Assembly: GCA_963762165.1 (NCBI GenBank)
Contig: CAVXJN010000003.1
Span: forward strand, 1,440,694 to 1,504,693
Length of the DNA: 64,000 nt
Direction: 5' to 3'
Source of the DNA: an uncultured Gammaproteobacteria bacterium
GTDB taxonomy: Bacteria; Pseudomonadota; Gammaproteobacteria; JASBUN01
Position numbers and translations under genes: made by a program. The notes under the pieces are model-generated. The model worked only from the letters and a program-made list of their open reading frames with translations, was not told the DNA's origin and did not search any database. Below, in pieces: positions 648 to 59,230 of this stretch (position 1 is the first letter of the stretch; each line of letters begins with the position of its first letter).

Positions 648-2681
648 ATGAAGCCAATGAAGAAACTGATTTCGAATCTCTCGATCCGACATAAGGTATG
701 GGGATCCCTCGGTCTGCTGGTTGCATTGATGGCGACGCTGGTAGGACTTTCCTACGTCAGTTTGTCGGGCGTCGACCGCAAAGTCGGAACAGTCGTGGAC
801 GAAATTCAGCCCACGGTAGTGCGCTCTATGCAACTCATGGCGCAACTGGAGCGTAGCGCCGGCGCATTGGGCTTTTATTTGCTCAGCCGCGACGACACCC
901 ATAAGCAGTCTTACCTGGCAGCGCTGAAATCGGCGCAGACGACTCTTGCGGCGCTCAAAGAGACAAGACTCATCGCGGAAAACGAAGCCAACCTCAAACT
1001 CCTCAACAGGATCGACCAGGACGTTGCCAAGTTCGCTTCTTATCACGAGCGTTTGTTCGAACTCACCGAGAACGACGCCAAGAACATTCCGGCGATTGCA
1101 TTGAGCGGCCAGATGTTGAATCCGCTCAGCCAACAGATGCTGCAGAATCTTTCCAGCATGCTGCAGTCCGAGGCCATGGAAGAAGCCAATGCTGAACGCA
1201 AAGGCATCCTCACCGACATCAACGACCTGCGCTACGCCTGGGCCAACGTTATGAACGGCGTGCGGGCGTACCTTGCATTTCGCGGCAAATCGTCGCTGGA
1301 TGAAGTCGATCTCTACAAGGGCGAAACGGACCGGTTATTGAAGAAGTTGCAGGACCGCGGCGATGCGCTGACCTTCGATCAAGCCGATTCGCTCGAACAG
1401 TTCGCGGGTCTGCGCGATAGCTTTTTTGCCAACTTCAAGAAAGTGTTTGAAATTCACAGCAGCGAACGCTGGCGCACCGATGCCTATCTGGTACGCAGCG
1501 AAATTGGACCGCTGTTGAGCGGAATAGAAGACAGATTGACGACTTTGGTGAAATCACTGGGCGATCGCGCCGCGACAACCGGCGGTGAACTCACCGATAC
1601 GATGAACTCGAGCCTGGTGACCCAGCTTGTGTTGCTGGTAATCGGGTTGCTCATCGGAACGCTGGTGCTGGTTGGTGCCGGGATGTTCATCGTCAAGCCG
1701 GCGCAACGGCTACGCGATCTGCTGCGCGACATTTCCGAGGGCGAGGGCGACCTCACTCAGCGCGCGGGCCTGGATTCGGAAGATGAGTTGGGACAGGCGT
1801 CCCGCTACTTCGACAACATGATGGACAGTATGCAAGCGATGATCCGTGACATCGCCGAAGTCTCCAATGCGGTACATGGCCGCTCCGGCGAGGCGAGTCG
1901 CGAAACCGAAGCCGTGACTTCGAACATCGCCCAGGGCGCCGACCGGGCCCGCAGCACTGCCGCCGCCACAGAACAGATGTCGACCACGGGTGCTGAAATC
2001 GCGCGCAGTGCCGCCGAGACCGCCGATGAGGCCGAGCGCGTGCAACAGGTTTCGGAAGACGGATCGCGGCGTGTTCAGCAGATGTCTGCGAAGGCCAAAG
2101 ACATGGGCGGGCAGGTGGATCATCTGCGCCGTGATGTCGAGGACTTGTCCGAAAAGAGCAAGGGCATGCTGGATATGGTGAGCATCATCAACGATATCGC
2201 CAATCAGACCAATCTTCTGGCCCTGAACGCCGCCATCGAAGCCGCCCGCGCCGGCGACTCCGGTCGCGGCTTCGCCGTAGTCGCAGAGGAAGTCCGGCAG
2301 TTGGCCATGAAGACCCAGGACTCGACGTCCCAGATCACGTCGTTGATTTCCGACAATCTGCAGTCCAACGAAAACCTTGCCTTGGTCATGGACAAAGTGT
2401 CTGAAGCGACCGGCAGTATGTTGGAGAGCGTCAACGAGACCGCCCAGGCGATCACCACCATGGGCGACGGTATCAAACTCATGAGCGGCAAGGCCGGTCA
2501 TATTGCCACTGCGGCCAAGGAACAATCCGTAGCCACTGACGAAGTGGCAGGCAATATCGAATCCATCTCGGCGATGGAAAGCGAAAATGCGACCCGCACC
2601 GGGCAGGTCGCCGCGCATCTGCAGGAGCTTTCCGAACTGTCTTCCCGCCTCGATACGCTGGTGGGTCGTTTCAAAGTCTGA
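648..2681 (+). CDS. methyl-accepting chemotaxis protein (2 TM, periplasmic ligand-binding region, HAMP, MCP signalling domain)
   Basis: 689-aa ORF with an N-terminal TM, a second TM near residue 330, then HAMP-like LRDLLRDISEGEGDLTQRA and the MCP signalling domain (NLLALNAAIEAARAGDSGRGFAVVAEEVRQLA). Start among the Met codons at 612, 648 and 657 is uncertain. Confidence 0.8.
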   Translation: MKPMKKLISNLSIRHKVWGSLGLLVALMATLVGLSYVSLSGVDRKVGTVVDEIQPTVVRSMQLMAQLERSAGALGFYLLSRDDTHKQSYLAALKSAQTTLAALKETRLIAENEANLKLLNRIDQDVAKFASYHERLFELTENDAKNIPAIALSGQMLNPLSQQMLQNLSSMLQSEAMEEANAERKGILTDINDLRYAWANVMNGVRAYLAFRGKSSLDEVDLYKGETDRLLKKLQDRGDALTFDQADSLEQFAGLRDSFFANFKKVFEIHSSERWRTDAYLVRSEIGPLLSGIEDRLTTLVKSLGDRAATTGGELTDTMNSSLVTQLVLLVIGLLIGTLVLVGAGMFIVKPAQRLRDLLRDISEGEGDLTQRAGLDSEDELGQASRYFDNMMDSMQAMIRDIAEVSNAVHGRSGEASRETEAVTSNIAQGADRARSTAAATEQMSTTGAEIARSAAETADEAERVQQVSEDGSRRVQQMSAKAKDMGGQVDHLRRDVEDLSEKSKGMLDMVSIINDIANQTNLLALNAAIEAARAGDSGRGFAVVAEEVRQLAMKTQDSTSQITSLISDNLQSNENLALVMDKVSEATGSMLESVNETAQAITTMGDGIKLMSGKAGHIATAAKEQSVATDEVAGNIESISAMESENATRTGQVAAHLQELSELSSRLDTLVGRFKV

Positions 2682-2689
2682 TCCGGGCA

Positions 2690-2718
2690 CCGACGGCGTT
2701 GCACTAGCACGCCGTCGG
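2690..2718 (+). terminator. perfect 9-bp stem-loop (CCGACGGCG / CGCCGTCGG, 11-nt loop) 9 nt after the MCP stop; no U-tract
   Basis: Inverted repeat read directly from the sequence. A poly-T tail is absent, so it may be a stabilising hairpin and not an intrinsic terminator. Confidence 0.3.
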
Positions 2719-2885
2719 CCCGCTCCCTGTCAGTCCTGGGCGCCGTCGGCGATTTCCCAACGCAGGCGCCCGGACTTCGGCCGGCCACCGGCACAACCGC
2801 CATTTCCCGTCAGCCGGTAGCCCGGTGCCGGCGCATCCTTTATCATTACACCCTTCCCAGATCGCCTCCCATCCGAGGATGTTCC

Positions 2886-5800
2886 ATGCTGCGATTGCGC
2901 GGTGGTCCCGCCCTTTCTTCGTTTCGAGTCGAAAAGCTGTGCGCGGCACTGCGCCAGCAGGGCGTTGAAGTCGCCGACGTGTATGCCGAATTCGTGCACT
3001 TCGTCGACACCGAACGCACCCTGAACCACCAGCAGCGCGGCATTCTCGATCGCATTTTGCAGTACGGCCCCCACCACGGCCGGCAGCCGGGCGAACCGGG
3101 GACATTGATTGTTGTCGTGCCGCGCCTGGGCACCATATCGCCGTGGTCCAGTAAAGCCACCGACATCGCCCACAATTGCGGACTGAGCGATGTTTCGCGA
3201 ATCGAGCGCGGTGTTGCCTACCACCTGCACGGCGCTGGCGGCCCGCTGCAGGGCGATGCGCTGAAGCGGGCATTGCCGTTGCTATATGACCGTATGACGG
3301 AAACGGTGTTGCGGAGCTTCGGCGACGCCGATGCCTTGTTCCGTCATGGGGCGCCCCGTCCGGTGCGCACGGTCGACATTCTCGGCGAAGGGCGTGCCGC
3401 CCTCGAACGGGCCAACCGCGACTGGGGCCTGGCGCTGGCGGACGACGAAATCGACTATCTGGTGGAGAATTTCCTCGCTTTGCGGCGCAATCCCACCGAC
3501 GTCGAATTGATGATGTTTGCCCAGGCCAATTCCGAGCACTGCCGCCACAAAATCTTCAATGCCGACTGGGTCATCGACGGCCGGTCCATGGAACGCTCGC
3601 TGTTCACGATGATCCGCAATACCCACGCCCGCACCAACGAGGATGTGCTGTCGGCCTATCGCGACAATGCGGCGGTAATTGCTGGTTTCACCGGCAGTCG
3701 TTTCGCGCCGGACAGCGAAAGCGGCGAATACCGCCACGTTGACGAACACTTGCCGATCCTGATGAAAGTGGAGACCCACAATCATCCGACCGCAATTTCA
3801 CCGTTTCCCGGCGCCGCAACCGGTTCCGGAGGCGAAATCCGCGATGAAGGCGCTACCGGCCGCGGCTCCAAACCGAAAGCAGGCTTGAGCGGCTTTTCGG
3901 TTTCCAATCTGCGTCTGCCCGGCGCCGAGCGTCCCTGGGAGACCGATCACGGCAGGCCCGGTCGTATCGTTTCGGCGTTACAGATCATGGTCGACGGTCC
4001 GTTGGGCGCGGCCGCATTCAACAACGAGTTCGGGCGGCCGGCGATTTGCGGCTATTTCCGTACCTACGAAGAGCGGGTGCCTGGACCCACGGGTACGGAA
4101 ATTCGCGGGTACCACAAACCGATCATGCTCGCCGGCGGCGTCGGCAACATGCGTGCGGACATGGTCAGCAAAGGCCGCATCGAACCTGGAGCGCAGCTGG
4201 TGGTGCTGGGCGGGCCGGCGATGCTGATCGGTCTCGGCGGCGGCGCGGCTTCGAGCATGGCCACCGGTGAAAGCGCCGAGGACCTGGACTTCGCCTCCGT
4301 GCAGCGCGGCAATCCGGAGATGCAGCGCCGTTGTCAGGAAGTCATCGACCGTTGCTGTGCACTGGGCGGCGAAAATCCAATCGTCTCCATTCACGACGTC
4401 GGCGCCGGCGGCCTGTCCAATGCCATGCCTGAACTGGTCAACGATTCCGGACGTGGCGGCCATTTTGAATTGCGCACCATCCCGAGCGACGACCAGAGCA
4501 TGGCGCCCATGGAGATCTGGTGCAACGAGGCCCAGGAACGCTACGTGATGGCCATCGATCCGGCGCGCATGGCGGTATTTCAGAACTTGTGCGAGCGCGA
4601 GCGCTGTCCTTACGCGCTCATTGGCGAGGCGACCGGCGAACAGCAATTGGTCCTGGGCGACGGTCACTTCGACAACACGCCCATCGACATGCCCATGGAA
4701 GTGCTGCTCGGCAAACCGCCGAAGATGCTGCGTGAGGTGCAGCGCCACCCATTCCATAAGCCGGAGTTCGAAACCGCAGGGATCGATATCGCCGAGGCTG
4801 CCGAACGAATATTGCAGTTGCCGACAGTGGCCGACAAGACGTTCCTGATCACCATTGGTGATCGCACCGTGACCGGGCTGGTGTCGCGCGACCAGATGGT
4901 CGGCCCATGGCAGGTACCCGTGGCCGATGTCGGCGTGACCTGTACCGATTACCGCGGCTATACCGGCGAAGCCATGGCCATCGGCGAGCGCACACCGATT
5001 GCGCTGGTACACCACGCCGCTTCGGCGCGCATGGCGGTGGGAGAGGCGCTGACCAATCTCGCAGCCGCTTCGATCCCCGAGCTCAAACGCGTGGTGCTGT
5101 CGGCCAACTGGATGGTGCCTGCGGGACATCCGGGTGAGGATGCCGGCTTGTACGACGCCGTGCATGCGGTTGGTATGGAACTGTGTCCCGCGCTTGGTAT
5201 CGCCATTCCGGTGGGCAAGGATTCCATGTCCATGAAGACCGTCTGGCAGGCCGGAGGCGAACAACGATCGGTGACGGCGCCGCTATCGTTGGTGATAACC
5301 GCGTTCGCTCCGGTCGAAGACGTACGCCGTACACTTACGCCGCAGTTGCGGACCGATTGCGGCGACACCGATCTGCTGTTGGTGGATCTTGGCAAAGGTC
5401 GCAACCGTTTGGCCGGCTCGGCGCTGGCGCAGGTGTACAAGCAGGTCGGTCATCACCCGCCGGACGTGGACGACGCCGGAGCGCTGCGGAGCTTCTTCAA
5501 AACCGTGCAGAACTTGAATTCAGCCGGTTTGCTGCTCGCCTATCACGACCGCTCCGATGGCGGTTTGTTTGCCACTGTGTGCGAGATGGCATTTGCAGGA
5601 CACTGCGGTGTCAGCGTGCAGTTGGACGATCTTGGCGACGAGCCGCTAGCGGCAATGTTCACGGAAGAACTGGGCGCAATCGTCCAGGTGCGCCGCACAG
5701 ACACCGGCGCGGTACTGCAGCAATTCCATGACGCCGGTCTGGGCCGTTACTGCCATGTGATCGGAAGTCTCAACGATCGGGACCAGGTCGAATTCAGTTT

Positions 5801-21596: not shown

Positions 21597-22417
21597 GTTA
21601 GCTCGTTTCCTTGTCGTGCTCGATCAGCGCGTACGCGGAGTGATTGTGAATGGATTCGAAGTTCTCCGACTCCACTGACGTAGGCACCGATCCGGTCGTC
21701 TTCATTCAGGCGCCCGGCGACATCCCGAACCATGTCTTCGACGAATTTCGGGTTGTCATAGGCCCGTTCGGTCACGAATTTCTCGTCCGGCCGTTTCAGC
21801 AGACCATAGAGCTGCAGGACGCTTCGTCTTCCACCAGGTCGATCACTTCCTCGATCCAGATAAAGCCCCTGGTGCGGACCTTGACGGTGACATGTGAGCG
21901 TTGGTTATGGGCGCCGTAATCGGAAATCTTCTTCGAACAAGGGCACAGGCTGGTCACCGGCACCACCACCTTGATATGCATGCTCGGCGCACCGTCACGG
22001 ATCTCGCCGATCAGCGTGACGTCGTAGTCCATCAAGCTCTGCACGCCCGACACCGGCGCGGTCTTGTTGATGAAATACGGAAACTGCATTTCGATATGAC
22101 CTGACGTCGGCTTCCAGGCGATCGGTCATTTCGGCGAGCATTTCCTTGAACGAGTCCACCGAGATCTCACGCTCGTGGAGGTTGAGGATCTCCACGAACC
22201 GCGACATGTGCGTGCCCTTGAAATTATGCGGCAGGTTCACGTACATGTTGAAGTTGGCGACGGTGTGCTGCTCGCCGCCCGAGCGGTCCTTGATGCGTAC
22301 CGGGTGGCGAATATCCTTGATTCCCACCTTGTCGATGGCGATGCGGCGCATGTCGGCGCTGCTCTGGACGTCTTCGATCTCGGCACCAGCCGTACCGATT
22401 GTGCTCATTTCATTCAT
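21597..22417 (-). pseudogene. folE2: GTP cyclohydrolase FolE2 (type IB, MptA family); at least 3 frameshifts, probably sequencing error
   Basis: N-terminal and central FolE2 sequence is in ORFs 21995..22444 and 21796..22089 (RHPVRIKDR...[20 protein letters not shown]; LCPCSK). The C-terminal [16 protein letters not shown] is readable only in a third frame around 21600-21680. Confidence 0.8.
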
Positions 22418-22592
22418 ACTCTCGGCTGTTCCTGTGAACTGCACGCGGACGCGACTTTGGAACCTTCAAGTTTACCTTGGTCCGGCCTTCGAATCGACCG
22501 CAGACTGGCTGAGACTTCGAATTCGGCGGGCCGTTGGCGGTGATTCCGGGCGATGCGGGGCGAAAGCTATAGGCGACTAAAGCAGTAGGATA

Positions 22593-24475
22593 TTACTGCA
22601 GTGCCTGGGCTTTTGCAACGGCGGGCAAACGCGCGCGGATGCTGCGCAGGATCGCTTCGACGTCGAGCCCGGATTCCGCCAACTGCTCGTCGGGGGTGCC
22701 GTGTTCGATGAAACGATCCGGCAGTCCCAGATGCATGATGTTGTGGGGCTCGCCTAGTCCGTGCAACAGCTCTGCTACTGCGCTGCCCGCGCCTCCGGCC
22801 ACCGCGTTTTCCTCGATCGTGACCAGTAGTTCATGTTCGCGGGCGCTGCGCAGGATCGCTTCTTCGTCCAACGGTTTGACGAAGCGCATATTGATCAGGG
22901 TTGCGTCCAGAGTCTCCGCGACCACTGCGGCGCGCTCCACCATGCTGCCGAAAGCGAGTAACGCGATCCGCTGGCCCTTGCGCCGCAATTGCGATTTGCC
23001 GATTTCCAGCGGCTCATGCGTTTGGCGGACCGTTACTCCAGGGCCGCGGCCGCGTGGATAGCGCACCGCGCTGGGGCCTTCGATCTCGTAAGCGGTGTCG
23101 AGCATCTGCCGGCATTCGTTCTCATCCGCAGGTGCCATCACCACCATATTCGGGTATGCAGCGCAAATAACTCAGATCGAAGCTGCCGGCGTGGGTCGGA
23201 CCGTCAGGCCCCACCAGTCCGGCGCGGTCGATGGCGAGCACGACCGGAAGCTTCTGCAGCGCTATGTCGTGAATGAGCTGATCGTAACCACGCTGCAGAA
23301 ACGTGGAATAAATGGCGAGCACCGGCTTCATTCCGGCGCAAGCCATTCCCGCGGCGAGGGTTACAGCGTGCTGTTCAGCGATGCCGACGTCGTGGAACCG
23401 TTGCGGATAGCGTTCCGAAAACGCGACCAGCCCGGAGCCTTCGCGCATGGCCGGCGTGATTGCGGTCAAGCGCGCGTCCTGCTGCGCGCGATCGCATATC
23501 CAGTCGCCGAAGACTTCGGTGTAGGTAGGCCGGCCCTTCGTTTTAATCGGTTGCGGTCCCGTGACCGGATCGAATTTGGATACCCCGTGGAGCGCGCAGG
23601 GATTGTCTTCGGCGGGCGGGTAACCCTTGCCTTTTTGCGTAACGACGTGCAGAAAGCGCGGCCCTTCCAGCTCGCGCAGGGTGCGCAGGGTGCGCACCAA
23701 CTGCGGCAGATCATGGCCGTCGATGGGGCCGACGTAATTGAAGCCCAGTTCTTCAAACAAGGTTCCCGGAACCACCATGCCTTTCATATGTTCTTCGGCG
23801 CGGCGTGCGAGTTCCATCATGCTCGGCACCGCGGAAAGCACTTTCTTGCCGCCTTCGCGCATACTGGCGTAAAAGCGGCCGGAGAGGATCTTGCCCAGAT
23901 AGCGCGACAGTCCGCCGACATTGCGGGAAATGGACATCTCGTTGTCGTTCAGGATCACCAGCAGATCCGCATCCACGTCGCCGGCGTGGTTGAGCGCTTC
24001 GAACGCCATGCCGGCGGTCATTGCGCCGTCGCCGATCACCGCGACGGTCTTGTTGGTGGCGCCGGTGCGCGGCAGCCGCCAATGCCATTCCCAGTGCGGC
24101 GCTGACCGAAGTGCTGGAATGGCCGACGCCGAAGGCGTCGTAGGGACTTTCGTTGCGCCTGGGAAACCCGGCAATGCCGCCGTACTGGCGCAATCCCGCC
24201 ATGGCTTCCCGGCGTCCGGTCAGTATCTTGTGGGGATAGCTCTGGTGGCCGACGTCCCAGACCAAGCGATCGCGAGGCGTATCGAAAACGTAGTGTAGCG
24301 CCACCGCGAGCTCGACTGTGCCCAGATTCGCAGCCAGGTGGCCACCGGTACGGGCAACCGACTGAACCAGAAAATCCCGCAGCTCAGCGGCCAGTTGACC
24401 CAACTGTTGCTTGGTCATGCCGCGCAGGTCGGCAGGATCGTTCACAGTTTCGAGGAGCGGATAGTTTTGGGTCAT
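22593..24475 (-). pseudogene. dxs: 1-deoxy-D-xylulose-5-phosphate synthase; at least 2 frameshifts, probably sequencing error
   Basis: Three ORF pieces (23753..24475, 23122..24174, 22593..23147) together are collinear with E. coli Dxs over the TPP-binding, transketolase-pyrimidine and C-terminal domains. The indels lie near 24090-24170 and 23140. Confidence 0.9.
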
Positions 24476-25797: not shown

Positions 25798-25826
25798 TTG
25801 ACAATGCCTGCCTCGTGAACTACATT
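25798..25826 (+). promoter_or_regulatory. sigma70-like promoter: TTGACA, 17-nt spacer, TACATT, driving the rubrerythrin cluster
   Basis: A perfect -35 hexamer at 25798-25803 and a 4/6 -10 at 25821-25826 sit in the 110-bp divergent region between xseB and the rubrerythrin gene. Confidence 0.45.
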
Positions 25827-25835
25827 ACCTGGCAC

Positions 25836-25856
25836 AGTTTAGACTGATTCTAAACT
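25836..25856 (+). promoter_or_regulatory. perfect 8-5-8 palindrome AGTTTAGA-CTGAT-TCTAAACT at the predicted +1 of the rubrerythrin promoter; candidate repressor operator
   Basis: Read directly from the sequence. It starts about 10 nt downstream of the -10 hexamer. It does not match the Fur, PerR or OxyR consensus sites I know. Confidence 0.4.
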
Positions 25857-25913
25857 CGGTTCCCCGTGGAAATTCATCTCATTTCAAGCAGTTAGCAATT
25901 GGAGGATCCTATC

Positions 25914-26333
25914 ATGGAACTGAAAAGCAGCAAAACCGAACAGAATCTGAAAGACGCCTTTGCCGGCGAATCCCAGGCGAACCGTCGCTACCTGTACTTT
26001 GCGGCCAAGGCCGACGTCGAAGGGTACAACGACGTAGCTTCCGTATTCCGCTCCACCGCCGAAGGCGAAACCGGCCATGCGCACGGTCATCTGGAATATC
26101 TGGAAGCCAGCGGCGACCCGGCTACCGGTCTGCCCATTGGCGCTACGTCCGACAACCTCAAGGCCGCGATTGCCGGTGAGACCCATGAGTACACCGATAT
26201 GTATCCGGGAATGGCCAAGTCCGCCCGCGATGAAGGTTTCGATGAAATCGCAGATTGGTTCGAAACCCTGGCCAAAGCCGAGCGCTCCCATGCCAACCGC
26301 TTCCAGAAAGCGCTGGATACCCTGGGCGAGTGA
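25914..26333 (+). CDS. rubrerythrin-family diiron protein (ferritin-like domain only, no rubredoxin domain)
   Basis: 139 aa from the ATG at 25914, 7 nt after a GGAGGA RBS. The two E-x-x-H diiron halves are [10 protein letters not shown]...[11 protein letters not shown] and [11 protein letters not shown]...AERSHANRF. Confidence 0.85.
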
Positions 26334-26345
26334 TCGATACGACGC

Positions 26346-26376
26346 GCAGGGGCCCATCGGTCCCTGCCGTTTTCTC
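26346..26376 (+). terminator. hairpin GCAGGG-N10-CCCTGC followed by CGTTTTCTCG between the rubrerythrin gene and the Fe-S gene; possible attenuator or partial terminator
   Basis: Read directly from the sequence. The short U-rich tail suggests weak or partial termination. Confidence 0.3.
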
Positions 26377-26404
26377 GACCCCCAATTTGCAGGCGTCGAC
26401 TGGT

Positions 26405-27748
26405 ATGGCAGCACCGAACGGAACACGCGAAGGCAGTCTTGAGGCGCCGACCCGCCATCCGCTGGGTCAGCAGGAAGCGAAATTCTGGGATGAGGACGCG
26501 TTGTTCCAGGAGATGGAGCGCGTATTCGATATCTGCCACGGCTGCCGCCGGTGCGTGAGCCTTTGTCATTCGTTTCCGACCTTGTTCGACCTGGTGGACG
26601 AATCGGAGACCATGGAGGTCGACGGCGTCGCCAAAGACGACTATTGGAACGTGGTGCAGCACTGTTACCTGTGCGATCTGTGCTACATGACCAAATGCCC
26701 TTATGTGCCGCCCCATGAGTGGAATGTCGATTTCCCGCACCTGATGCTGCGGGCGAAGGCGGTGCACTTCAAGAAGCACGGTGTGCGATTCCGTGACCGC
26801 GTCCTGAGTTCCACCGATCAGGTCGGTAAGCTGGCCGGGATCCCGGTTGTGGCGCAGGCGGTCAACGCCGCCAACCGATCCAAACCGGCGCGTAAACTGC
26901 TAAGCAAGACGATGGGCGTGCATCCGGATGCACTGTTGCCCGCCTATCATAGTTCGACGCTGCGCAAACGGGTTTCCGGGCGCGTATCCGCGGTGACGCA
27001 ACCGCAGCCGGCAGGGGAAACCCAAGGCCGCGTGGCGCTGTTCGCGACCTGCTACGGTAATTTCAACGAGCCTCATCTTGGCGAAGACCTGATTGCCGTG
27101 TTTGAGCACAACGGCATTGCGGTAAGCATTGCAGAGAAAGAGCAATGCTGCGGCATGCCGAAGCTGGAACTGGGCGACCTCGAAGCCGTCGAGCGCGCCA
27201 AGAATGTCAATATTCCGGTGTTGGCAAAGCTGGTGGATCAAGGCTGGGATATCGTGGCGCCGGTGCCGTCCTGCGTGTTGATGTTCAAACAAGAGCTGCC
27301 GCTCATGTATCCGCACGATGCCGATGTCGCCAAGGTTCGCGATGCGATCTACGATCCGTTCGAATACTTGGTCTTGCGCCACAAGGAAGGCAAGCTCAAT
27401 ACCGAGTTCAAGCAACCGCTGGGGAAAGTGGCCTATCACGTGGCCTGCCACCAACGAGTGCAGAATATGGGCATGAAGACCCGCGACATACTTCAGCTGG
27501 TCCCGGAGACCGAGTTACAGCCGATCGAGCGTTGCTCCGGGCACGATGGCACGTACGCGGTGAAGAACGAATTCCATGAGATTTCCATGAAGATAGCCAG
27601 ACCGGTCGTCAACCGTGTGAAGCAGGCCGAAGCGCAGTACTACACCAGCGACTGCCCGATGGCCGGTCATCAAATTGAAAATGGATTGCGAAACGGCGAA
27701 GCGCCCAAGCATCCGCTGACACTGCTTCGCATCGCCTACGGATTGTAG
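26405..27748 (+). CDS. heterodisulfide-reductase-related (Fe-S) oxidoreductase: 2x[4Fe-4S] ferredoxin region plus two CCG cysteine-rich domains (GlpC/HdrD/LutA-like)
   Basis: [15 protein letters not shown] and [17 protein letters not shown] (ferredoxin motifs), then CCGMP...C and a second Cys-rich CCG-type segment. The start is placed at the Met of MAAPNGTRE inside ORF 26255..27748. Confidence 0.8.
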
Positions 27749-27781
27749 AACCGGTCTAGACACTCGCGAAAGGAGCAATGA

Positions 27782-28084
27782 ATGAGCAGTGAGGGGTTCC
27801 ACGAACGTTTTGAAGATTTAAGCGATGAAACCCGCGACATGCATCGCGCCATCGCGTCTTTGATGGAAGAACTCGAAGCGGTGGATTGGTACCAGCAGCG
27901 CGTGGACGCGTGCAAGGATGAGCAGTTGCAGGAAATCCTTGCCCATAATCGAGATGAGGAAAAGGAGCATGCTGCAATGGTGCTGGAATGGATTCGCCGG
28001 CGCGATCCCAAATTTGATCAGCACTTGAAGGACTATTTGTTTACCGACAAGCCGATACTGCAGATCGAGCAACAGTCGGACTGA
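27782..28084 (+). CDS. encapsulated-ferritin-like (EncFtn family) ferritin-like protein
   Basis: 100 aa, with an AAGGAG RBS. The core HRAIASLMEELEAVDWYQQRVDACKDEQLQEILAHNRDEEKEHAAMVLEWIRR is near-identical in pattern to Rhodospirillum rubrum EncFtn (HRAIVSVMEELEAVDWYDQRVDA...ILAHNRDEEKEHAAMTLEWLRR), recalled from memory. Confidence 0.75.
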   Translation: MSSEGFHERFEDLSDETRDMHRAIASLMEELEAVDWYQQRVDACKDEQLQEILAHNRDEEKEHAAMVLEWIRRRDPKFDQHLKDYLFTDKPILQIEQQSD

Positions 28085-28107
28085 TACCACGGCAACAGGT
28101 GAGACCG

Positions 28108-28692
28108 ATGCAGAAGCTAACCCGCGACGACTTGTATTCTCTGGAAAAGTACGCTGAAGTGCGGAATCAGTTCCGAGCCGAGGTGATGGAACACAAGAAG
28201 AATCGCCAGGTTGCGGTCGGTCCCAATGCGACCTTGTATTTCGAAGACCGGCTCATTATGCAGTACCAAGTCCAGGAAATGCTTCGCGCCGAGCGCATCT
28301 TCGAAGCCGCAGGCATTCAGGAAGAACTGGATTCCTATAATCCGCTGATCCCGGATGGCGACAACTGGAAGGCGACTTTTATGATCGAGTATCCTGACGC
28401 CGACGAACGTAAAGTGGCGCTTTCCAAATTGCTTGGGGTTGAGGACCGGGTCTGGGTGAAGGTTGAAGGTTTCGATCCTGTTTTTGCGATCGCCGACGAA
28501 GACATCGAACGCGAGACCGCCGAAAAGACCTCTTCTGTACATTTTCTACGTTTCGACTTGAACCCGAACATGATCGGCGCGGCCAAGGATGGCGCCGCAG
28601 TCTCGATCGGGATCGATCACGAGCACTATCGCCATCAGATCAGCCCCGTGCCGGCAAACGTACGCGATGCGCTGACGGCGGATCTGGACTAG
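28108..28692 (+). CDS. DUF3501-family protein
   Basis: About 195 aa with an AGGTGA RBS before the ATG at 28108 (alternative GTG 28099). The family assignment is from memory of the DUF3501 layout and its usual neighbourhood with CCG Fe-S proteins and rubrerythrins. Confidence 0.65.
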   Translation: MQKLTRDDLYSLEKYAEVRNQFRAEVMEHKKNRQVAVGPNATLYFEDRLIMQYQVQEMLRAERIFEAAGIQEELDSYNPLIPDGDNWKATFMIEYPDADERKVALSKLLGVEDRVWVKVEGFDPVFAIADEDIERETAEKTSSVHFLRFDLNPNMIGAAKDGAAVSIGIDHEHYRHQISPVPANVRDALTADLD

Positions 28693-28723
28693 GCTCGCGG
28701 GCCGTTCCCTGTTGTCAAGACCC

Positions 28724-28758
28724 GGCGGCCGAACAGCACGACCGCCTTTGCTGTTTCC
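28724..28758 (+). terminator. GC stem (GGCGG...CCGCC) followed by TTTGCTGTTTCC after the DUF3501 gene
   Basis: Read directly from the sequence. It is a plausible operon-end terminator. Confidence 0.35.
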
Positions 28759-28840
28759 GGACCCGGGTTTTGAACCGGAAATTAGGTTCTCGCCTGATTG
28801 CGCTGGGCGCGCTACACTGTAGCCGCTTAAAATCCTAGGT

Positions 28841-31343
<2,503 letters not shown>

Positions 31344-40826: not shown

Positions 40827-42578
40827 TTATCTCTCCGCTCCGGCATCGGGTCGGTCACCGTCCAACCGGTCGTAGACGAAGTGGGAAAAACTTCCGTTGC
40901 GCTCCAACTCTTCGGTCAACTGAACGCGCCGGGGCATGCCCTGATGCAAAACTTCAAGCTGTTCGCCGACGCGATGTTCGGTGGAAGCGACGATCAAGCT
41001 CGCCGGTTGCCCGGCGGCGCGAATCGCAGGCAAATCCAGCGCGGTATCCTGACGGCGATCGCGCGTATTGCGCGCTAATACTGCTTCGGCGGACGGCGCG
41101 AGGATCTCGATGCCCAGTTTGAGGCCTTGATCGGGTTCGTATTGCATCCAGCGGACCACGCCGACGGTCCAGGAGTGGCCGCCGTTCTCTCTCAGGCTCA
41201 CGACTTCGCCCACTTTCGCCGAGGATGGCTTGTCGCTGTCCCAAAGCAGGCAGCAACCGCGGGCGCTGACATCCACCGTGCGCCACAAGAAGTCCCGGTA
41301 CTCGGGTTCCGGCAAAGCCGCACCCGGCAGCGGATAATGCGCCACCGAATCGCTGCGCCGCGATGTGTTTGCGAAAAATCGCTCATTGCCGTCGTCGTAC
41401 CAGCTGTGGTCGAGCGTGATATGGGTTTCGCCTTGATTGGTCTGTAAGTCCAGCGGCGGCACGATTCCCAGAGCCGGCGGGAATTCTGCCGGTATTTCGG
41501 GCACTGCCGGGGCGTCGCGTTCGAGCAAAAAGTACGCGGTGTTCAATCCCAGGCCGACGCGTATGTCCGATGCCTGCGTTATACGCTTGAAACCGCGTCG
41601 GGGAGGACGGCGCCACAGGGCCAGCAGCCGACGGCGCAATTGCAGCTCCGGTTCATTGTGCTCGAGCCCCGCTTCGTCCAGCGCTTCCACTACAGCCGAC
41701 AGATCGACATAACGGACATTGCCGGCATCGTGTTCCTGTGCGCGAGGGTACGGAGGACGGTCCTGTTCGGTGCGTATCTGGAACGCGGTGTGCTGGGTGG
41801 GTTGCGGACTGAGAATCAGCTTGTGTGCGAGCGCTGAGGCCAGGGTCAAAACGCGGCCCAGCTCGTCGCGACGCAGTCTATAGGGGTTGGCTAGGCTCAC
41901 CAGCAACGACTCCCGGTACAGTTCGCCGATGCGCGATCCAATGGGCGCGCGGCGGCTCGCCGCAGCGGGCGTGAGCAGCTCGTGATCCTCGGCGATTCGA
42001 TGCAGGCTGTGCAGGTCGAGCCACAGTCCGTCGCTGGAGGGCGCATACAAGACATAGTGATCGAGCAGCAATCGACCAATTTGCTGCAGGGCGTGTTGCA
42101 GCGATGCGGCCAACAACTTGCGCTCGCTGCGTCCACCTGTAATCGAATCGACGACTATCAGTTTGTAGGTGTCGGCGAATGAGCGCAGCAGTGAATTACA
42201 CAGGTCTGCTTGCTGCACCGCTTTGCCGGTGAGCGGAAAGCCCCGGTGACTGATGCCTTTGATCAGGGCGCGGGTCCCGAATCCGACGGTTTCGTGAATC
42301 GCATCGGCGAACCGATAGCGGCTGGGCGCATCCACGGCTGCTCGGTTCGACGACTGCACCAATGCCAGCAATCGACGGCACGATTCCTGGGGGTCGGCCA
42401 GAGGCAGTTGCCGGAGCCATTCCTGAATCCGGCGCGGCCGCAGGTCGAACTCGGATCGTTGCCGATCCTGCATCGGCACGCGAAGCCCATGGCGAGACTC
42501 ATATTTTTCTTGGTCCATCATCCGCTGTCGATCCACAATCTCCGTGCCGCGCGAGCGGCGCCGATTTTCTTCCACCAT
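40827..42578 (-). CDS. large (583 aa) protein with a C-terminal PilZ-like domain (tentative c-di-GMP receptor); N-terminal 400 aa uncharacterised
   Basis: The C-terminal segment has a DxSxxG-type motif (DVSARG) about 30 aa after an RR stretch, but the RxxxR motif is not canonical. It is convergent with the GNAT gene (3-nt gap). Confidence 0.4.
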   Translation of the reverse strand: MVEENRRRSRGTEIVDRQRMMDQEKYESRHGLRVPMQDRQRSEFDLRPRRIQEWLRQLPLADPQESCRRLLALVQSSNRAAVDAPSRYRFADAIHETVGFGTRALIKGISHRGFPLTGKAVQQADLCNSLLRSFADTYKLIVVDSITGGRSERKLLAASLQHALQQIGRLLLDHYVLYAPSSDGLWLDLHSLHRIAEDHELLTPAAASRRAPIGSRIGELYRESLLVSLANPYRLRRDELGRVLTLASALAHKLILSPQPTQHTAFQIRTEQDRPPYPRAQEHDAGNVRYVDLSAVVEALDEAGLEHNEPELQLRRRLLALWRRPPRRGFKRITQASDIRVGLGLNTAYFLLERDAPAVPEIPAEFPPALGIVPPLDLQTNQGETHITLDHSWYDDGNERFFANTSRRSDSVAHYPLPGAALPEPEYRDFLWRTVDVSARGCCLLWDSDKPSSAKVGEVVSLRENGGHSWTVGVVRWMQYEPDQGLKLGIEILAPSAEAVLARNTRDRRQDTALDLPAIRAAGQPASLIVASTEHRVGEQLEVLHQGMPRRVQLTEELERNGSFSHFVYDRLDGDRPDAGAER

Positions 42579-43659: not shown

Positions 43660-43713
43660 AACGCGCTCACCCGCTGGGGCGGCGTAATCCTAGAACATGC
43701 AACGGTAAGATCC

Positions 43714-44283
43714 ATGGCTACCTATAGTACTAATGAATTCAAAAGCGGTCTCAAAATCATGCTGGACGGAGACCCCTACAACATCGTCGAGAACGAATTC
43801 GTCAAACCCGGCAAAGGCCAGGCATTCAATCGGGTGAAGGTGCGCAACCTCAAGACCGGCCGGGTCATCGATCGAACCTTCAAGTCCGGCGAATCGGTGG
43901 AGAGCGCCGACGTCCACGAGACCGAAATGCAGTATCTGTACACGGACGGCGAATTCTGGCATTTCATGGACCCGGCAAGCTACGAGCAATTGGCCGCCGA
44001 CGCCAATGCGGTGGGCGACGCGCAGAAGTGGCTCAAGGAGCAGGACATGTGCCAGGTGACCTTGTACAACGGCGAACCGTTGAGCGTCACGCCGCCAAAT
44101 TTCGTGGTGCTCAAGGTAACCGAAACCGACCCGGGCGTGCGCGGCGACACGTCCGGCGGCGGCGGCAAGCCGGCGACGCTGGAAACCGGCGCCGTGGTGC
44201 GTGTGCCGTTGTTCGTGGACATGGACGAACTCATCAAAGTGGATACGCGCACGGGCGAGTACGTGTCGCGCGCCAAGGAGTAG
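43714..44283 (+). CDS. efp: elongation factor P
   Basis: 189 aa starting [22 protein letters not shown], with the conserved Lys loop KPGKGQAF. It is divergent from epmB as in E. coli. Confidence 0.95.
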
Positions 44284-44322
44284 AGTCGCCGGCCAACCGT
44301 CCGTCGTCGCGGCGCCGCAAGC

Positions 44323-45321
44323 GTGGATGAATTCCCCGACAATGATCTGCCTTGGCGTCCGTGCGCTACGCAGCAGACGCTGCGCGCCCGCGCGGCGATG
44401 TTGGCGGCCATTCGCCGCTTCTTCGATCGGCGCCAGGTGCTTGAAGTTGAAACACCGCTGTTGTCCCAGGCGGGCAATACCGACCCTGCGTTGGCCAGTT
44501 TCCACTGCCGGTACACCGGCCCGGGCGCCCCGCAAGGCGCCGAACGCTGGTTGCCCACCTCCCCCGAACTGCACATGAAACGCTTGTTGGCGGCGGGAAG
44601 CGGCGCCATCTATCAGGTCTGCAAAGTGTTTCGGGACGGCGAACTGGGCCGTTGGCACGCCCCCGAATTCACCATGCTGGAGTGGTATCGGCCTGGATTC
44701 GACCATCGTCGGCTGATGGACGAAGTCGAGGCCCTGGTGATCGAATTGCTGGCTCCCTACCGCAACCTCGCGCCAGCGCAACGGCTGACCTATCGCGACG
44801 CGTTTTTGCGTCATGCGGCGGTGGACCCGTTCGAAGCCAGCAGCGGCGAACTGCAGGGGCGGGCGGCCGCGTTGGGGATTCACGCCCCGGCCAGCCTGCG
44901 GGGTCGGGACGAATGGTTGGATCTGCTGCTCACGCAATGTGTGGAACCGGCTTTGCGTGAGTATGCGCTGTGCTTCATCTATGACTATCCTGCCAGTCAG
45001 GCGGCGCTCGCGCGTGTGCGGCACGACCTGCCGGCGGTGGCGGAGCGCTTTGAGCTGTATCTCGACGGTGTGGAATTGGCCAACGGCTTTCATGAACTGG
45101 CCGACCCGGCGGAACAGGCGCGCCGCTTCGAAGCGGATGTCCAGCGGCGCGAGCGTCACGGCGTCGCCGGTCCGCCAGCGGACCGTTGGCTGCTGGCGGC
45201 GTTGGAGCACGGTCTGCCGGCTTGCGCGGGAGTGGCCCTCGGGCTGGACCGGGTGCTGGTGTTGGCGTTGCAGCTGTCCGCGCTCGACCAGGCGCTGGCC
45301 TTTCCATGGAACAGGGCCTGA
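44323..45321 (+). CDS. epmA: EF-P lysine aminoacylase EpmA (GenX/PoxA, truncated class II LysRS paralog)
   Basis: 332 aa class II aaRS catalytic core without an anticodon-binding domain (EVETPLL...FTMLEWY...GVALGLDR). Confidence 0.9.
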   Translation: MDEFPDNDLPWRPCATQQTLRARAAMLAAIRRFFDRRQVLEVETPLLSQAGNTDPALASFHCRYTGPGAPQGAERWLPTSPELHMKRLLAAGSGAIYQVCKVFRDGELGRWHAPEFTMLEWYRPGFDHRRLMDEVEALVIELLAPYRNLAPAQRLTYRDAFLRHAAVDPFEASSGELQGRAAALGIHAPASLRGRDEWLDLLLTQCVEPALREYALCFIYDYPASQAALARVRHDLPAVAERFELYLDGVELANGFHELADPAEQARRFEADVQRRERHGVAGPPADRWLLAALEHGLPACAGVALGLDRVLVLALQLSALDQALAFPWNRA

Positions 45322-45415
45322 CAAATGTGGGAAACTGTAGGCAGGTCGCGCGGCGCGGGGCACAGGCCGAGCCGGTTCGACGCACCTATTCATCGAAACG
45401 AAGAGCGACTTCAGC

Positions 45416-45739
45416 ATGACCGACAATGACACGAATGACACCCGTTGGAGTGCCCGGCGCCGAGTTCAACTGCAGGTTGAAGTTTATTGTGCCGGCCGAC
45501 CCTATGCCCGCTGCGTCACGCGAGACATCGGTTTCGGCGGTATGTTCATCGAGGCAGGTCGCGCGTTGCCGCGCTGCGGGCGTAGTCTCGAACTGGTGGT
45601 CAGTGAAGTGCAGGCCGCCGGCGGCGGCTATAGTCACCGCTTCCATGCCACAGTCGTACGTCAGAGCGCGCGCGGCTTGGGAGTCGCTTTCAGCCGTTAT
45701 GATGTAAACGACGTTCGCGCGCTGCAGACGTTCCTGTAA
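45416..45739 (+). CDS. small PilZ-domain protein (tentative)
   Basis: 107 aa with an RRR stretch at the N-terminus and a DIGFGGMF segment resembling the PilZ DxSxxG region. The motifs are non-canonical. Confidence 0.45.
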   Translation: MTDNDTNDTRWSARRRVQLQVEVYCAGRPYARCVTRDIGFGGMFIEAGRALPRCGRSLELVVSEVQAAGGGYSHRFHATVVRQSARGLGVAFSRYDVNDVRALQTFL

Positions 45740-58673: not shown

Positions 58674-59157
58674 GACCACCGCGATCGCAGTGATTCCGGC
58701 GCCGTTCGGCCGGGTAGGCATCTGGGTTGGCGACGGCTGCCTGGAGCGCCTAGAACTGCTGTCCGGCGATGGCCCGCTGCGGGCGCCGGTATCTGGGCTG
58801 TCGGTACAGGTGGCGCAGCAGCTGGCGCACTATTTCCGCAGTCCACGCTTTCGATTCTCCGTGCCGTTGCAACCACTCGGTACCCCGTTTCAGCAGCGGG
58901 TGTGGGCGTCGCTGGGCGACATCCCGGTCGGTGAAGTGCGTACGTACGGCGAATTGGCCACCGCCCTCGGCACCGGCGCCCGGGCCGTGGGTGGGGCCTG
59001 CCGCGCCAATCCGGTCCCCATCATCGTGCCCTGCCACCGGGTCGTGGCGGCGGTGGGAATCGGCGGCTTCGCCGGACACACGATGGGCGCGCAACTGGCG
59101 TGGAAGCATTGGTTATTGGCCCACGAAGGACGAGGCTTCCCCGCCACCGGCCCTTGA
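58654..59157 (+). CDS. ogt: methylated-DNA--protein-cysteine S-methyltransferase
   Basis: The active site PCHRVV is present with the surrounding helix-turn-helix region. The start is at the Met of MPNRPIETT. Confidence 0.8.
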
Positions 59158-59230
59158 AAGTCGGCTACGGCGCCCCCATAAGCACAGCTTTGAACGTGGT
59201 GGACCGGTTACTCAAGGAGAAGCGCGGATC

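Follow-up and report, generated by a model that had tools for sequence, protein, structure and literature searches.

A four-gene aerobic-type rubrerythrin operon with a short EncFtn-like protein and an ICE-like operator in an uncultured gammaproteobacterium

The gene cluster and its genomic setting

The window analyzed here is a 64-kb stretch of DNA (64,000 nucleotides) from an uncultured gammaproteobacterium. Within it, four genes lie on the forward strand (25914-28692), with intergenic gaps of 71, 33, and 23 nt. The first, RBR (25914-26333), encodes a rubrerythrin of 139 aa (Pfam PF02915) and has a strong ribosome binding site, GGAGGA. It is followed by RFO (26405-27748), which encodes a GlpC/HdrD-like Fe-S/CCG protein with two CCG domains (PF02754) and Fer4; s-FLP (27782-28084), which encodes a short, EncFtn-like protein of 100 aa (PF22277, 6e-44); and the gene for a DUF3501 protein of 194 aa (28108-28692; PF12007, 6e-74). 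An earlier note on this DNA had described four same-strand genes with short gaps and had named the products as rubrerythrin, CCG Fe-S protein, EncFtn-like protein, and DUF3501 protein—the measured gaps bear out the layout, and Pfam agrees with each of the domain calls.

The earlier note also raised the question of whether this gene order is conserved across genomes, and it is. Among 62 assessable loci, 58 have RBR immediately 5' of RFO; RFO is followed by DUF3501, directly or via s-FLP, in 79 of 80, and the order RBR-RFO-DUF3501 is kept in 58 of 62. The surroundings are conserved as well; an arrangement of dxs-ispA-xseB, the cluster, a CNP1-like gene, and parE-parC recurs in many relatives. 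Since the location between xseB and parE is conserved, a recent insertion is excluded, and the description of the cluster as "inserted" between two blocks was misleading.

Relation to the aerobic-type rubrerythrin system

RBR, RFO, and DUF3501 were named together as the "aerobic-type rubrerythrin system" by Cardenas, Quatrini & Holmes in 2016, by bioinformatics only, with all three genes found together in 185 genomes (PMC5114695). The trio has been revisited in protist mitochondria (PMC7050145) and in Acidihalobacter (PMC7760498), and the Rbr of B. pseudomallei has been taken up again (bioRxiv 10.1101/2025.06.01.657255). The cluster in the window agrees with this system in its three proteins, their order, and their common strand, with an RBR that lacks a rubredoxin domain, a GlpC-like RFO (COG0247), and a DUF3501 protein of PF12007; it differs in having a fourth gene, s-FLP, between RFO and DUF3501. 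In the papers searched we found no mention of an EncFtn-like fourth gene as a member of the cluster—the 2016 figure legend has only an entry "HYP, hypothetical protein" (PMC5114695)—and these papers describe no operator, candidate regulator, or hairpin after rbr. Judged by its sequence, the cluster is the known aerobic-type rubrerythrin operon in a less common, four-gene form with a shell-less s-FLP. The earlier note knew of no characterized function for the combination or for DUF3501; the combination had in fact been described and named in 2016.

The rubrerythrin

RBR matches PF02915 (1e-29) over residues 11-133 and has no other domain. All seven predicted di-iron ligands are present (E19, E52, H55, E89, E92, E123, and H126) in the pattern E, ExxH, E, E, ExxH, and these residues are identical in alignment to those of B. 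pseudomallei Rbr. The protein is closest to the structures of that Rbr, 9ONM and 4DI0 (E about 1e-74 to 3e-74), followed by sulerythrin, 1J30 (E about 1e-51 to 3e-51), and a classical Rbr, 1B71 (2e-28); both 4DI0 and sulerythrin are domain-swapped dimers. Over 58 loci RBR is 85-99% identical. Its score with the NCBIfam rubrerythrin equivalog, 138 bits, does not reach the cutoff of 200, and the match covers only model positions 3-144 of 194.

Classical rubrerythrins, such as those of D. vulgaris and P. furiosus, carry a C-terminal rubredoxin domain, and NAD(P)H:rubredoxin oxidoreductase and rubredoxin supply their electrons; many anaerobes have rbr in a PerR/Fur-family regulon. RBR resembles these proteins in its four-helix-bundle di-iron site, its seven identical ligands, and the H2O2 reductase chemistry to be expected of it. 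In contrast, the C-terminal rubredoxin-like Cys4 domain is absent from RBR, which has no Cys and ends at residue 139, and electrons are presumed to arrive through a separate Fe-S/CCG protein together with DUF3501. Among its closest relatives, B. pseudomallei Rbr is reported to be induced by oxidative stress, and in vitro a peroxidase activity is on record for sulerythrin (bioRxiv 10.1101/2025.06.01.657255).

RFO and DUF3501

The RFO sequence contains a pair of ferredoxin-type Cys motifs, C44/47/50/54 and C87/90/93/98. Of its two CCG domains, the first has C216, C248, C249, and C290 and the second has C348, C377, and C417. This architecture, in which two CX2CX2CX3-4C motifs are combined with two CCG domains, is shared with HdrD/HdrB, GlpC, and mycobacterial EtfD; unlike EtfD and HdrE, RFO lacks a membrane/heme b domain. 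Two specific identities were checked, and neither fits. The best NCBIfam match is GlpC, at 251.5 bits against an equivalog cutoff of 278, and no glpA or glpB partner adjoins RFO, which is instead accompanied by RBR and DUF3501. Nor does RFO have the two complete 5-Cys CCG motifs of a heterodisulfide reductase of the HdrB/HdrD type; its CCG Cys count is 4 + 3, as against 5 + 5 in HdrB (CXnCCGXmCXXC).

The DUF3501 protein has no Cys and consists of a helical hairpin and a beta-sandwich, an orphan fold. Crystal structures exist for DUF3501 (3FJV) and for the closest relatives of RBR (4DI0 and 9ONM) and of s-FLP (3K6C). Fusions of DUF3501 to RFO are known in Nitrosomonas, and in the Thermoproteales RBR and DUF3501 occur without RFO (PMC5114695); RFO therefore cannot be the universal donor.

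RFO and DUF3501 might be thought of as a general disulfide/thiol-linked reductase, working by CCG chemistry of the HdrB type and serving various peroxidases, with RBR as one client among them. In two Chromatiaceae loci (L041 and L042) a glutathione-peroxidase-like gene does replace RBR 5' of RFO-DUF3501; however, such adjacency is limited to 2 of 80 loci, the 4 + 3 Cys of its CCG domains differ from the 5 + 5 of HdrB, and RBR, s-FLP, and DUF3501 all lack Cys, so that disulfide exchange with them is impossible. We regard a general reductase as very unlikely.

The short EncFtn-like protein

The ferroxidase-centre residues of s-FLP, E30, E60, H63, and Y37, correspond to E32, E62, H65, and Y39 of R. 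rubrum EncFtn (an offset of +2 in the Rru/Hoch alignment), with the roles of these residues taken from a review (PMC11202242). The best PDB match is 3K6C (NE0167 of N. europaea; E about 3e-42 over residues 1-93); EncFtn 5DA5 and 5N5F score 1e-36 to 1e-38, and all solved EncFtn entries fall between 1e-33 and 1e-38. In the window the gene has RFO, DUF3501, the CNP1-like gene, and parE as neighbours.

Of 79 related clusters, 14 have an s-FLP gene between RFO and DUF3501, and these represent at least five separate clades; the same slot is filled in 4 of 30 metagenomic clusters. The in-cluster genes have gaps of 20-90 nt, and s-FLP was never found elsewhere in the cluster flanks. Another s-FLP lies between genes for an AhpC-type peroxiredoxin and a TrxR-like protein. 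The s-FLPs encoded by stand-alone genes share 82-83% identity with the window protein (over 92% of its length) and match it no less closely than the in-cluster copies of other lineages do. The link to the cluster may be loose, given these near-identical stand-alone copies and the 65 of 79 clusters that have no s-FLP. The protein could then be an independent passenger: a general Fe2+-scavenging mini-ferritin that is co-transcribed in some lineages and has no physical or mechanistic link to its neighbours. No sequence feature or tail is particular to the in-cluster s-FLPs, and the gene has a G+C content of 51.8%, below the 58.7% of RBR and RFO, which also fits a passenger. Set against this are the constancy of the slot across clades, the position of the gene inside the operon and not at its end, and the AhpC/s-FLP/TrxR-like peroxide-scavenging operon, which argues for at least a shared stress function; on balance we consider a mere passenger unlikely, though worth keeping in view.

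The same protein passes TIGR04535, the model for encapsulin-associated ferritin-like proteins, at 141 bits against a cutoff of 125, with a match to profile positions 1-93 of 114 only. The s-FLP class was defined in a 2024 review that called its role unclear and left encapsulation open (PMC11202242), and s-FLP could be a true encapsulin cargo with its shell gene at another genomic site. Its sequence, however, stops after residue 100 (tail ...PILQIEQQSD) with no encapsulin-targeting peptide, no C-terminal extension is present among 25 aligned s-FLPs, and no encapsulin gene was found among 30 scanned ORFs of the window, in 7 sampled s-FLP contexts, or in the 14 + 4 clusters; encapsulation is, in our estimation, exceedingly improbable. 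PF22277 and the ferroxidase residues are shared with the EncFtn cargo of family 1 encapsulins (R. rubrum 5DA5 and H. ochraceum 5N5F), whereas s-FLP has neither a targeting peptide nor a nearby shell gene and is set in a peroxide-defence operon. By sequence it is a member of the s-FLP subclass—NE0167/3K6C-like proteins of ~95-101 aa without a targeting peptide.

Promoter, operator, and candidate regulator

A sigma-70-type promoter, TTGACA-N17-TACATT, which the earlier note had named, lies on the forward strand at 25798-25826 and consists of a -35 element (25798-25803), a 17-nt spacer, and a -10 element (25821-25826); 10 of 12 positions match. A single match of this quality is not above chance in the region; of 42 operator-bearing orthologous loci, however, 40 have a promoter laid out in this way. 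The -10 element keeps a fixed spacing to the operator: it ends 5-12 nt ahead of it in 31 loci, and the two overlap by 8 nt in 8.

The palindromic operator that had also been proposed is present and strongly conserved. It is a perfect, ICE-like palindrome, AGTTTAGA-N5-TCTAAACT (25836-25856), with the core TTTAGACTGATTCTAAA at 25838-25854. The palindrome starts 10 nt 3' of the -10 element (12 nt for the core) and so probably lies over, or just downstream of, the transcription start. Within the 64-kb window it is the sole match at up to one mismatch, and 868,658 bp of related loci hold 45 such sites—42 within 200 bp upstream of RBR, one at -243 of RBR, and the remaining two upstream of katG (katG with the box in L011). 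The operator is conserved in 42 of 58 loci.

The core, TTTAGAC-TGA-TTCTAAA, matches 13 of the 14 specified positions of the ICE consensus (Irr box) of Alphaproteobacteria, TTTAGAA-N3-TTCTAAA (PMC1698941). In a 2006 survey Irr and ICE were confined to Alphaproteobacteria, where Irr controls iron-storage and iron-using genes and where, in some members, the minimal set of predicted Irr targets consists of rubrerythrin-like genes (PMC1698941). The operator in the window is like those of the Irr-ICE regulon in its sequence, its repressor-site position, and its rubrerythrin-like target; the hosts, in contrast, are mainly Gammaproteobacteria and some Hydrogenophilales (Thiobacillaceae), with a few MAGs labelled otherwise. 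Apparently, no operator of this type had previously been described beyond the Alphaproteobacteria.

No Fur-family gene is present in the 64-kb window. In two relatives (L045 and L047), Irr-like Fur-family genes stand tail-to-tail with DUF3501, as they do in 30 of ~39 metagenomic loci with sufficient flank. The Fur-family neighbours in relatives have no Cys, carry HHHH or HQH motifs, and have IrrA/Irr as their best NCBIfam match. The L045 and L047 proteins reach 107 and 103 bits with the IrrA and Irr models, below the NCBIfam equivalog cutoffs of 150 and 170, and score nearly as high, 85 bits, with the PerRA model. Because the window has no such gene and the relatives' proteins lie below the cutoffs, the regulator is one that we infer: the operator is most likely occupied by a Fur-family repressor of the Irr/PerR type.

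An Irr-type control raises another explanation, in which the operon mainly serves iron homeostasis and not peroxide reduction, its expression tracking iron status and its two ferritin-fold proteins oxidizing and handling iron that RFO would re-reduce and release. The ICE-like operator and the Irr-like neighbours speak for this, as do the governance of iron genes by alphaproteobacterial Irr, with minimal regulons that include a rubrerythrin-like gene (PMC1698941), and the promiscuous metal binding of B. pseudomallei Rbr. We nevertheless find it quite unlikely: the same box stands before katG in L011, the Irr-like proteins are nearly as good matches to PerR models (85 bits), sulerythrin shows peroxidase activity and Rbr is reported to be induced by oxidative stress, and neither RBR dimers nor EncFtn decamers alone can store iron (PMC8346489).

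RNA structures within and after the operon

A hairpin follows RBR on the forward strand (26346-26377); the stem-loop, GCAGGGGCC-CATC-GGTCCCTGC, spans 26346-26367 and is followed by CGTTTTCTCG, with CGTTTTCT directly after the stem-loop. The earlier note had rightly placed a hairpin between the first two genes, although "weak" does not describe it; the predicted dG is -22.5 kcal/mol (z -4.4), and none of 200 shuffles folds as well. This was the sole terminator-like site called by the scan. Its position is conserved, while its sequence varies—within 60 nt after the RBR stop codon, z is below -2 in 75% of 63 loci, compared to 6% inside RFO. The T-tract behind it is short (4 T), and we read the hairpin as a candidate partial intrinsic terminator or stabilizer of the mRNA 3' end.

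A GC hairpin with a T-run had likewise been proposed at 28724-28758, after DUF3501, and this one did not hold up. The stem-loop on the forward strand at 28715-28773 is weak and imperfect and was not called by the scan; 28716-28765 folds with a z of -0.69, with 48 of 200 shuffles equal or better, and a larger imperfect structure (28693-28800) reaches a z of only -2.0. A significant fold 3' of DUF3501 is present in only 33% of loci. The structure folds at chance level and is not convincing as an intrinsic terminator.

Proposed mechanism and significance

The earlier note had suggested a dedicated electron-transfer module for peroxide or iron detoxification, and this is consistent with all of the findings and with the literature. 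We consider it likely that the cluster is an Irr/PerR-repressed H2O2-reductase operon, with RFO as the presumed electron donor of RBR, DUF3501 as a putative cofactor-less adaptor, and s-FLP as a putative Fe2+ scavenger. Transcription would start from the sigma-70 promoter and be held by an Irr/PerR-type repressor on the ICE-like palindrome directly 3' of it, and replete iron and/or peroxide would lift the repression. Most transcripts may end, or be stabilized, at the hairpin after rbr, and RFO, s-FLP, and DUF3501 would be translated from read-through mRNA; the hairpin would thus place RBR in excess over the other three proteins.

In the proposed reaction, the RBR di-iron site would reduce H2O2 to water. 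Since RBR lacks a rubredoxin domain, electrons would reach it by way of the Fe-S clusters of RFO, a putative soluble module, similar to HdrD/EtfD, that combines a pair of [4Fe-4S] motifs with its two CCG domains. DUF3501, a Cys-less protein with an orphan beta-sandwich fold, most likely works as a structural adaptor, docking RFO onto RBR, and not as a redox carrier. s-FLP, in turn, is most likely a decameric ferroxidase like its homologue 3K6C; it would oxidize loose Fe2+, curbing Fenton chemistry during peroxide stress, and may buffer iron for its iron-rich partners.

A more ambitious version is conceivable, though we hold it to be doubtful: the four proteins would form one soluble machine with the s-FLP decamer as an integral redox partner, the whole unit being under a previously unrecognized Irr/PerR-like regulator and an ICE-box regulon that extends beyond Alphaproteobacteria. 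For example, DUF3501-docked RFO might pass electrons not only to the di-iron site of RBR but also to the ferric iron formed at the ferroxidase centre of s-FLP, and loose Fe2+ would then be consumed catalytically along with H2O2. If true, this would provide the first physiological role for the shell-less s-FLP class and for DUF3501.

Gene content and genomic position

The cluster comprises four plus-strand genes separated by gaps of 71, 33 and 23 nt. In order, these encode an aerobic-type rubrerythrin (RBR; 25914-26333, 139 aa) with Rubrerythrin PF02915 as its sole domain; a GlpC/HdrD-like Fe-S protein (RFO; 26405-27748, 447 aa) with two CCG domains (PF02754) and a weak Fer4 domain; a short EncFtn-like protein (s-FLP; 27782-28084, 100 aa, PF22277); and a DUF3501 protein (28108-28692, 194 aa, PF12007). 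All four Pfam assignments are those given in the earlier note. The flanks are xseB (minus strand) on one side and, on the other, a CNP1-like gene and then parE and parC.

The gene order was compared among relatives from a DUF3501 profile search limited to one genome per species, which returned 592 relatives; the best 80 of these were fetched and searched with the four window proteins by tblastn. The order holds up well: in 79 of the 80 loci RFO immediately precedes DUF3501, and RBR immediately precedes RFO in 58 of the 62 with enough upstream sequence, the four exceptions all being Chromatiaceae. Two of these Chromatiaceae loci carry a glutathione-peroxidase-like gene in the usual place of RBR (L041, 4526-5071; L042, 1082-1621), and L017 and L059 likewise have no RBR upstream of RFO-DUF3501.

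The cluster had been described as inserted between its neighbours, a view that the relatives contradict—44 loci have parE on the downstream side and 30 have xseB on the upstream side, and the dxs-ispA-xseB block was seen again in independent metagenomic contigs. Since the flanks are conserved as well, we regard the cluster as an old resident of its site in this group of Gammaproteobacteria rather than an insertion. The CNP1-like gene between the cluster and parE (28841-29422; PF08750, 193 aa, signal-peptide-like N-terminus) has homologues at the same site in 22 of the 80 loci.

A published trio and its four-gene variant

The RBR-RFO-DUF3501 trio had already been published by Cardenas, Quatrini and Holmes in 2016 (PMC5114695). 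These authors defined an "aerobic-type" rubrerythrin lineage without a rubredoxin domain, which they found both close to and in the same genomes as DUF3501 and a GlpC-like Fe-S protein. [quoted passage not shown] They also reported DUF3501-RFO fusions in Nitrosomonas, and a figure legend lists "HYP, hypothetical protein" without explanation. Later papers describe the trio as a module of the mitochondria of Andalucia and other protists (PMC7050145), report it from Acidihalobacter (PMC7760498), and identify it as the operon that holds B. pseudomallei Rbr (bioRxiv 10.1101/2025.06.01.657255). The earlier interpretation was therefore right in spirit, but the core system had already been described bioinformatically and structurally sampled.

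None of these four papers mentions an EncFtn-like gene; among searchable papers there was likewise none tying DUF3501 or RFO to EncFtn or encapsulin, and none tying Irr/ICE to a gammaproteobacterial rubrerythrin. Three elements are new here: the recurrent four-gene variant with s-FLP; an ICE-like operator and, linked to it, an Irr-like regulator from outside Alphaproteobacteria; and a conserved intercistronic hairpin.

The short ferritin-like protein

Of 79 clusters, 14 have an s-FLP gene, in every case in the interval that separates RFO from DUF3501 and never at another site in the flanks. In a neighbour-joining tree of RFO and DUF3501—a crude tree, in which the patchiness is nonetheless clear—the window and these 14 loci are spread over at least five separate clades: the lineage of the window, two groundwater/soil MAGs, Thioalkalivibrio, a Hydrogenophilales MAG, and a group of MAGs labelled Alphaproteobacteria. 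s-FLP is thus an optional component of the RBR system. One could read the protein as a passenger, and its patchy distribution would suit that reading; against it can be set the constant slot. The ferroxidase-centre residues are invariant or nearly so among 25 aligned relatives. These residues (E30, E60, H63 and Y37) correspond, at an alignment offset of +2, to E32, E62, H65 and Y39 of the R. rubrum ferroxidase centre, whose roles are taken from PMC11202242; the metal ligands are intact.

Among solved structures, 3K6C (N. europaea NE0167; E 2.7e-42, an entry with 10 chains) is the closest, and the genuine cargo proteins from H. ochraceum and R. rubrum come next. s-FLP also passes the NCBIfam model "encapsulin-associated ferritin-like protein", over profile positions 1-93 of 114 only. 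A rival reading, then, is that s-FLP is an encapsulin cargo whose shell is encoded at a distance. The chain, however, stops a few residues past the structured domain, and neither s-FLP nor any of the 25 aligned relatives has an encapsulin targeting peptide; there is no encapsulin family among the 30 window ORFs scanned, and no encapsulin neighbour in seven sampled genomic contexts of close s-FLP homologues. Proteins of this short type were termed "s-FLP" in a 2024 review (PMC11202242), which allows that they might be encapsulated.

Two of the seven contexts lie within the RBR cluster and share its dxs-ispA-xseB flank, and four are solitary or in unrelated company. The other, the related locus L091 (3276-5282), has a 94-aa s-FLP that is 84% identical to that of the window and flanked by genes for an AhpC-type peroxiredoxin and a Pyr_redox_2 TrxR-like flavoprotein. 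Given these contexts and the lack of an encapsulin among the ORFs scanned and contexts sampled, we take s-FLP to be a shell-less ferroxidase-type protein that has been recruited repeatedly into peroxide-scavenging operons. L091, which also carries an OsmC gene close to this set, represents a second peroxide-scavenging operon setting for shell-less EncFtn-like proteins. A tail or length specific to the cluster was considered and discarded, in-cluster copies having both short (-PIAHE/K) and long (-LEHEHKG) tails. One locus alone, L055, has an insert of ~700 bp (~330-1077) with an extra ORF in the interval between RFO and s-FLP.

Promoter, operator and candidate regulator

Both regulatory elements noted earlier are present: the promoter TTGACA-N17-TACATT at 25798-25826 and the palindrome AGTTTAGA-N5-TCTAAACT at 25836-25856. 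The 80 loci total 868,658 bp, in which the core TTTAGA-N5-TCTAAA (at most one mismatch) occurs at 45 sites. Of these, 42 lie no more than 200 bp upstream of RBR and one lies 243 bp upstream of it. The remaining two are tandem boxes, ATTAGATTCATTCTAAA and TTTAGAAAAATTCTAAA, at 2370-2403 of the relative L011, 45 nt before katG (catalase-peroxidase, 2448-4709). These katG boxes, the only ones in 869 kb not upstream of RBR, suggest a small peroxide-defence regulon.

Of the 58 loci whose sequence extends 250 nt or more upstream of RBR, 42 carry the box. In 40 of these 42, a sigma-70-like promoter matching 8 or more of 12 positions stands in one of two arrangements: the -10 element ends 5-12 nt ahead of the box in 31 loci, and the box's own TAGAAT serves as the -10 in eight. 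This conserved geometry is that of a repressor site. The operator consensus, TTTAGAMTNAKTCTAAA, coincides with the "iron control element" (ICE) TTTAGAA-N3-TTCTAAA, which is bound by Irr in Alphaproteobacteria; the study concerned found Irr and ICE in no other group and noted that the smallest Irr regulons amount to a rubrerythrin-like gene or a peroxidase (PMC1698941). An operator of this kind could also be read as marking the operon as an iron-homeostasis module; the katG boxes sit better with peroxide defence. A second ICE-like site in the interval between RFO and s-FLP (27744-27760, two mismatches) is absent from the 94-99% identical L002 and from all other four-gene loci and, not being conserved, is attributed to chance.

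Approximate E. coli Fur and B. subtilis PerR queries matched no Fur-family gene in the window. Two relatives have such a gene tail-to-tail with DUF3501 (L045, 7678-8112, and L047, 8656-9084, both on the minus strand). Its best NCBIfam matches are IrrA (107 bits) and Irr (103 bits), both below cutoffs, with PerRA next at 85 bits; the protein is free of cysteine and has an HHHH or HQH motif. When metagenomes were scanned with the two proteins, 54 loci were returned, about 39 of them with at least 400 nt of downstream flank. In 30 of these, DUF3501 is immediately downstream and convergent with the Irr-like gene—followed by RFO and RBR where the contig reaches—and four of the 30 clusters include s-FLP. 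The RBR promoters of metagenomic loci with a linked Irr-like gene have the core TTAGA-N5-TCTAA. We infer that an Irr/PerR-like repressor controls the operon, the candidate regulator being taken from these relatives. The cysteine-free genes convergent with DUF3501 (L045, L047 and L095-L143) would constitute an Irr-like lineage outside Alphaproteobacteria. In a marine clade with the linked Irr-like gene, a hairpin, GGTGTAGACTCTGCACACC, lies in the 5'UTR of RBR between operator and start codon (L111, L116, L118, L126, L129, L133, L136 and L143); it does not occur in the window.

Hairpins and predicted stoichiometry

The sole terminator-like site called by the scan is the hairpin after rbr (26346-26367, followed by CGTTTTCT), with a dG of -22.5 kcal/mol and a z of -4.4. 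Over the first 60 nt or less past the RBR stop codon in 63 loci, the median z is -3.2, and z falls below -2 in 75%, as against 6% for a control stretch within RFO and 33% after DUF3501. The position of the hairpin is conserved and the sequences differ, with T-runs after many. Z-scores were adopted because the presence of a perfect stem of 6 bp or longer failed to separate the two sites (58 of 65 loci after RBR versus 57 of 81 after DUF3501). Together with a strong rbr RBS (GGAGGA) and a poor RFO RBS, this hairpin predicts much more RBR than RFO, s-FLP or DUF3501.

The hairpin proposed to close the operon at 28724-28758 is the one part of the earlier observation that did not survive analysis: the scan did not call it, and shuffled sequence folds as well (z -0.69). 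As no convincing terminator follows DUF3501, transcripts may read through into the CNP1-like gene. The only Rfam match, a miRNA on the opposite strand of the RBR gene, is spurious (24.7 bits against a gathering score of 51).

RFO, DUF3501 and a proposed mechanism

The best NCBIfam match of RFO is GlpC-like, below the equivalog cutoff (251.5 bits versus 278), and a sequence search found no PDB relative. The cluster ligands are intact. All 15 cysteines are invariant in 67 loci; they form two ferredoxin-type motifs and CCG domains with four and three cysteines. From this motif make-up, RFO is the soluble Fe-S/CCG module of its family without the membrane domain. DUF3501 matches PDB 3FJV, a structural-genomics "novel protein" of B. 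pseudomallei (E 1e-60), and has no cysteine, which makes a role as redox carrier unlikely. An adaptor role fits the RFO fusion reported in the literature. The DUF3501 family has 2606 representatives at 50% identity; among the best 150 of these, nearly all are ~190-200 aa and none is fused to RFO, leaving PMC5114695 as the sole source for the Nitrosomonas fusion.

In the mechanism we propose, repression of the Irr/PerR type would be lifted by iron and/or peroxide. Electrons would then pass from RFO to the di-iron site of RBR, which would reduce H2O2; DUF3501 would dock RFO onto RBR, and s-FLP decamers would oxidise free Fe2+. A rival reading is a thiol-linked reductase, for which the CCG domains of RFO might speak and to which the cysteine-free DUF3501 would bring no thiol.

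Other features of the window

On the minus strand, dxs is broken up among three reading frames (22593-23147, 23122-24174 and 23753-24475) and a folE2-like gene over two ORFs (21796-22089 and 21995-22444); on the plus strand, htpG is in two pieces (HATPase, 58769-59890; HSP90, 60195-61127). These look like frameshifts in essential or housekeeping genes, for which assembly errors (long-read indels), not pseudogenes, are the most likely explanation. Two minus-strand ORFs of 583 aa (40827-42578 and 43690-45441) match no Pfam family and are unrelated to each other (BLASTP E 1.8); they may be spurious long ORFs in 61% G+C DNA and not genes.

Significance

The RBR-RFO-DUF3501 system is very widespread—the literature reports it from archaea, from many proteobacteria (the pathogen B. 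pseudomallei among them) and from the mitochondria of protists. The locus refines a known oxidative-stress module and does not overturn current views. It offers testable handles in the recurrent tie of the RBR system to shell-less EncFtn-like s-FLP proteins and in the unequal stoichiometry predicted from the conserved rbr hairpin; the sharply delimited TTTAGA-N5-TCTAAA operator, with its candidate Irr/PerR-like regulator outside Alphaproteobacteria, tells when the system is used.
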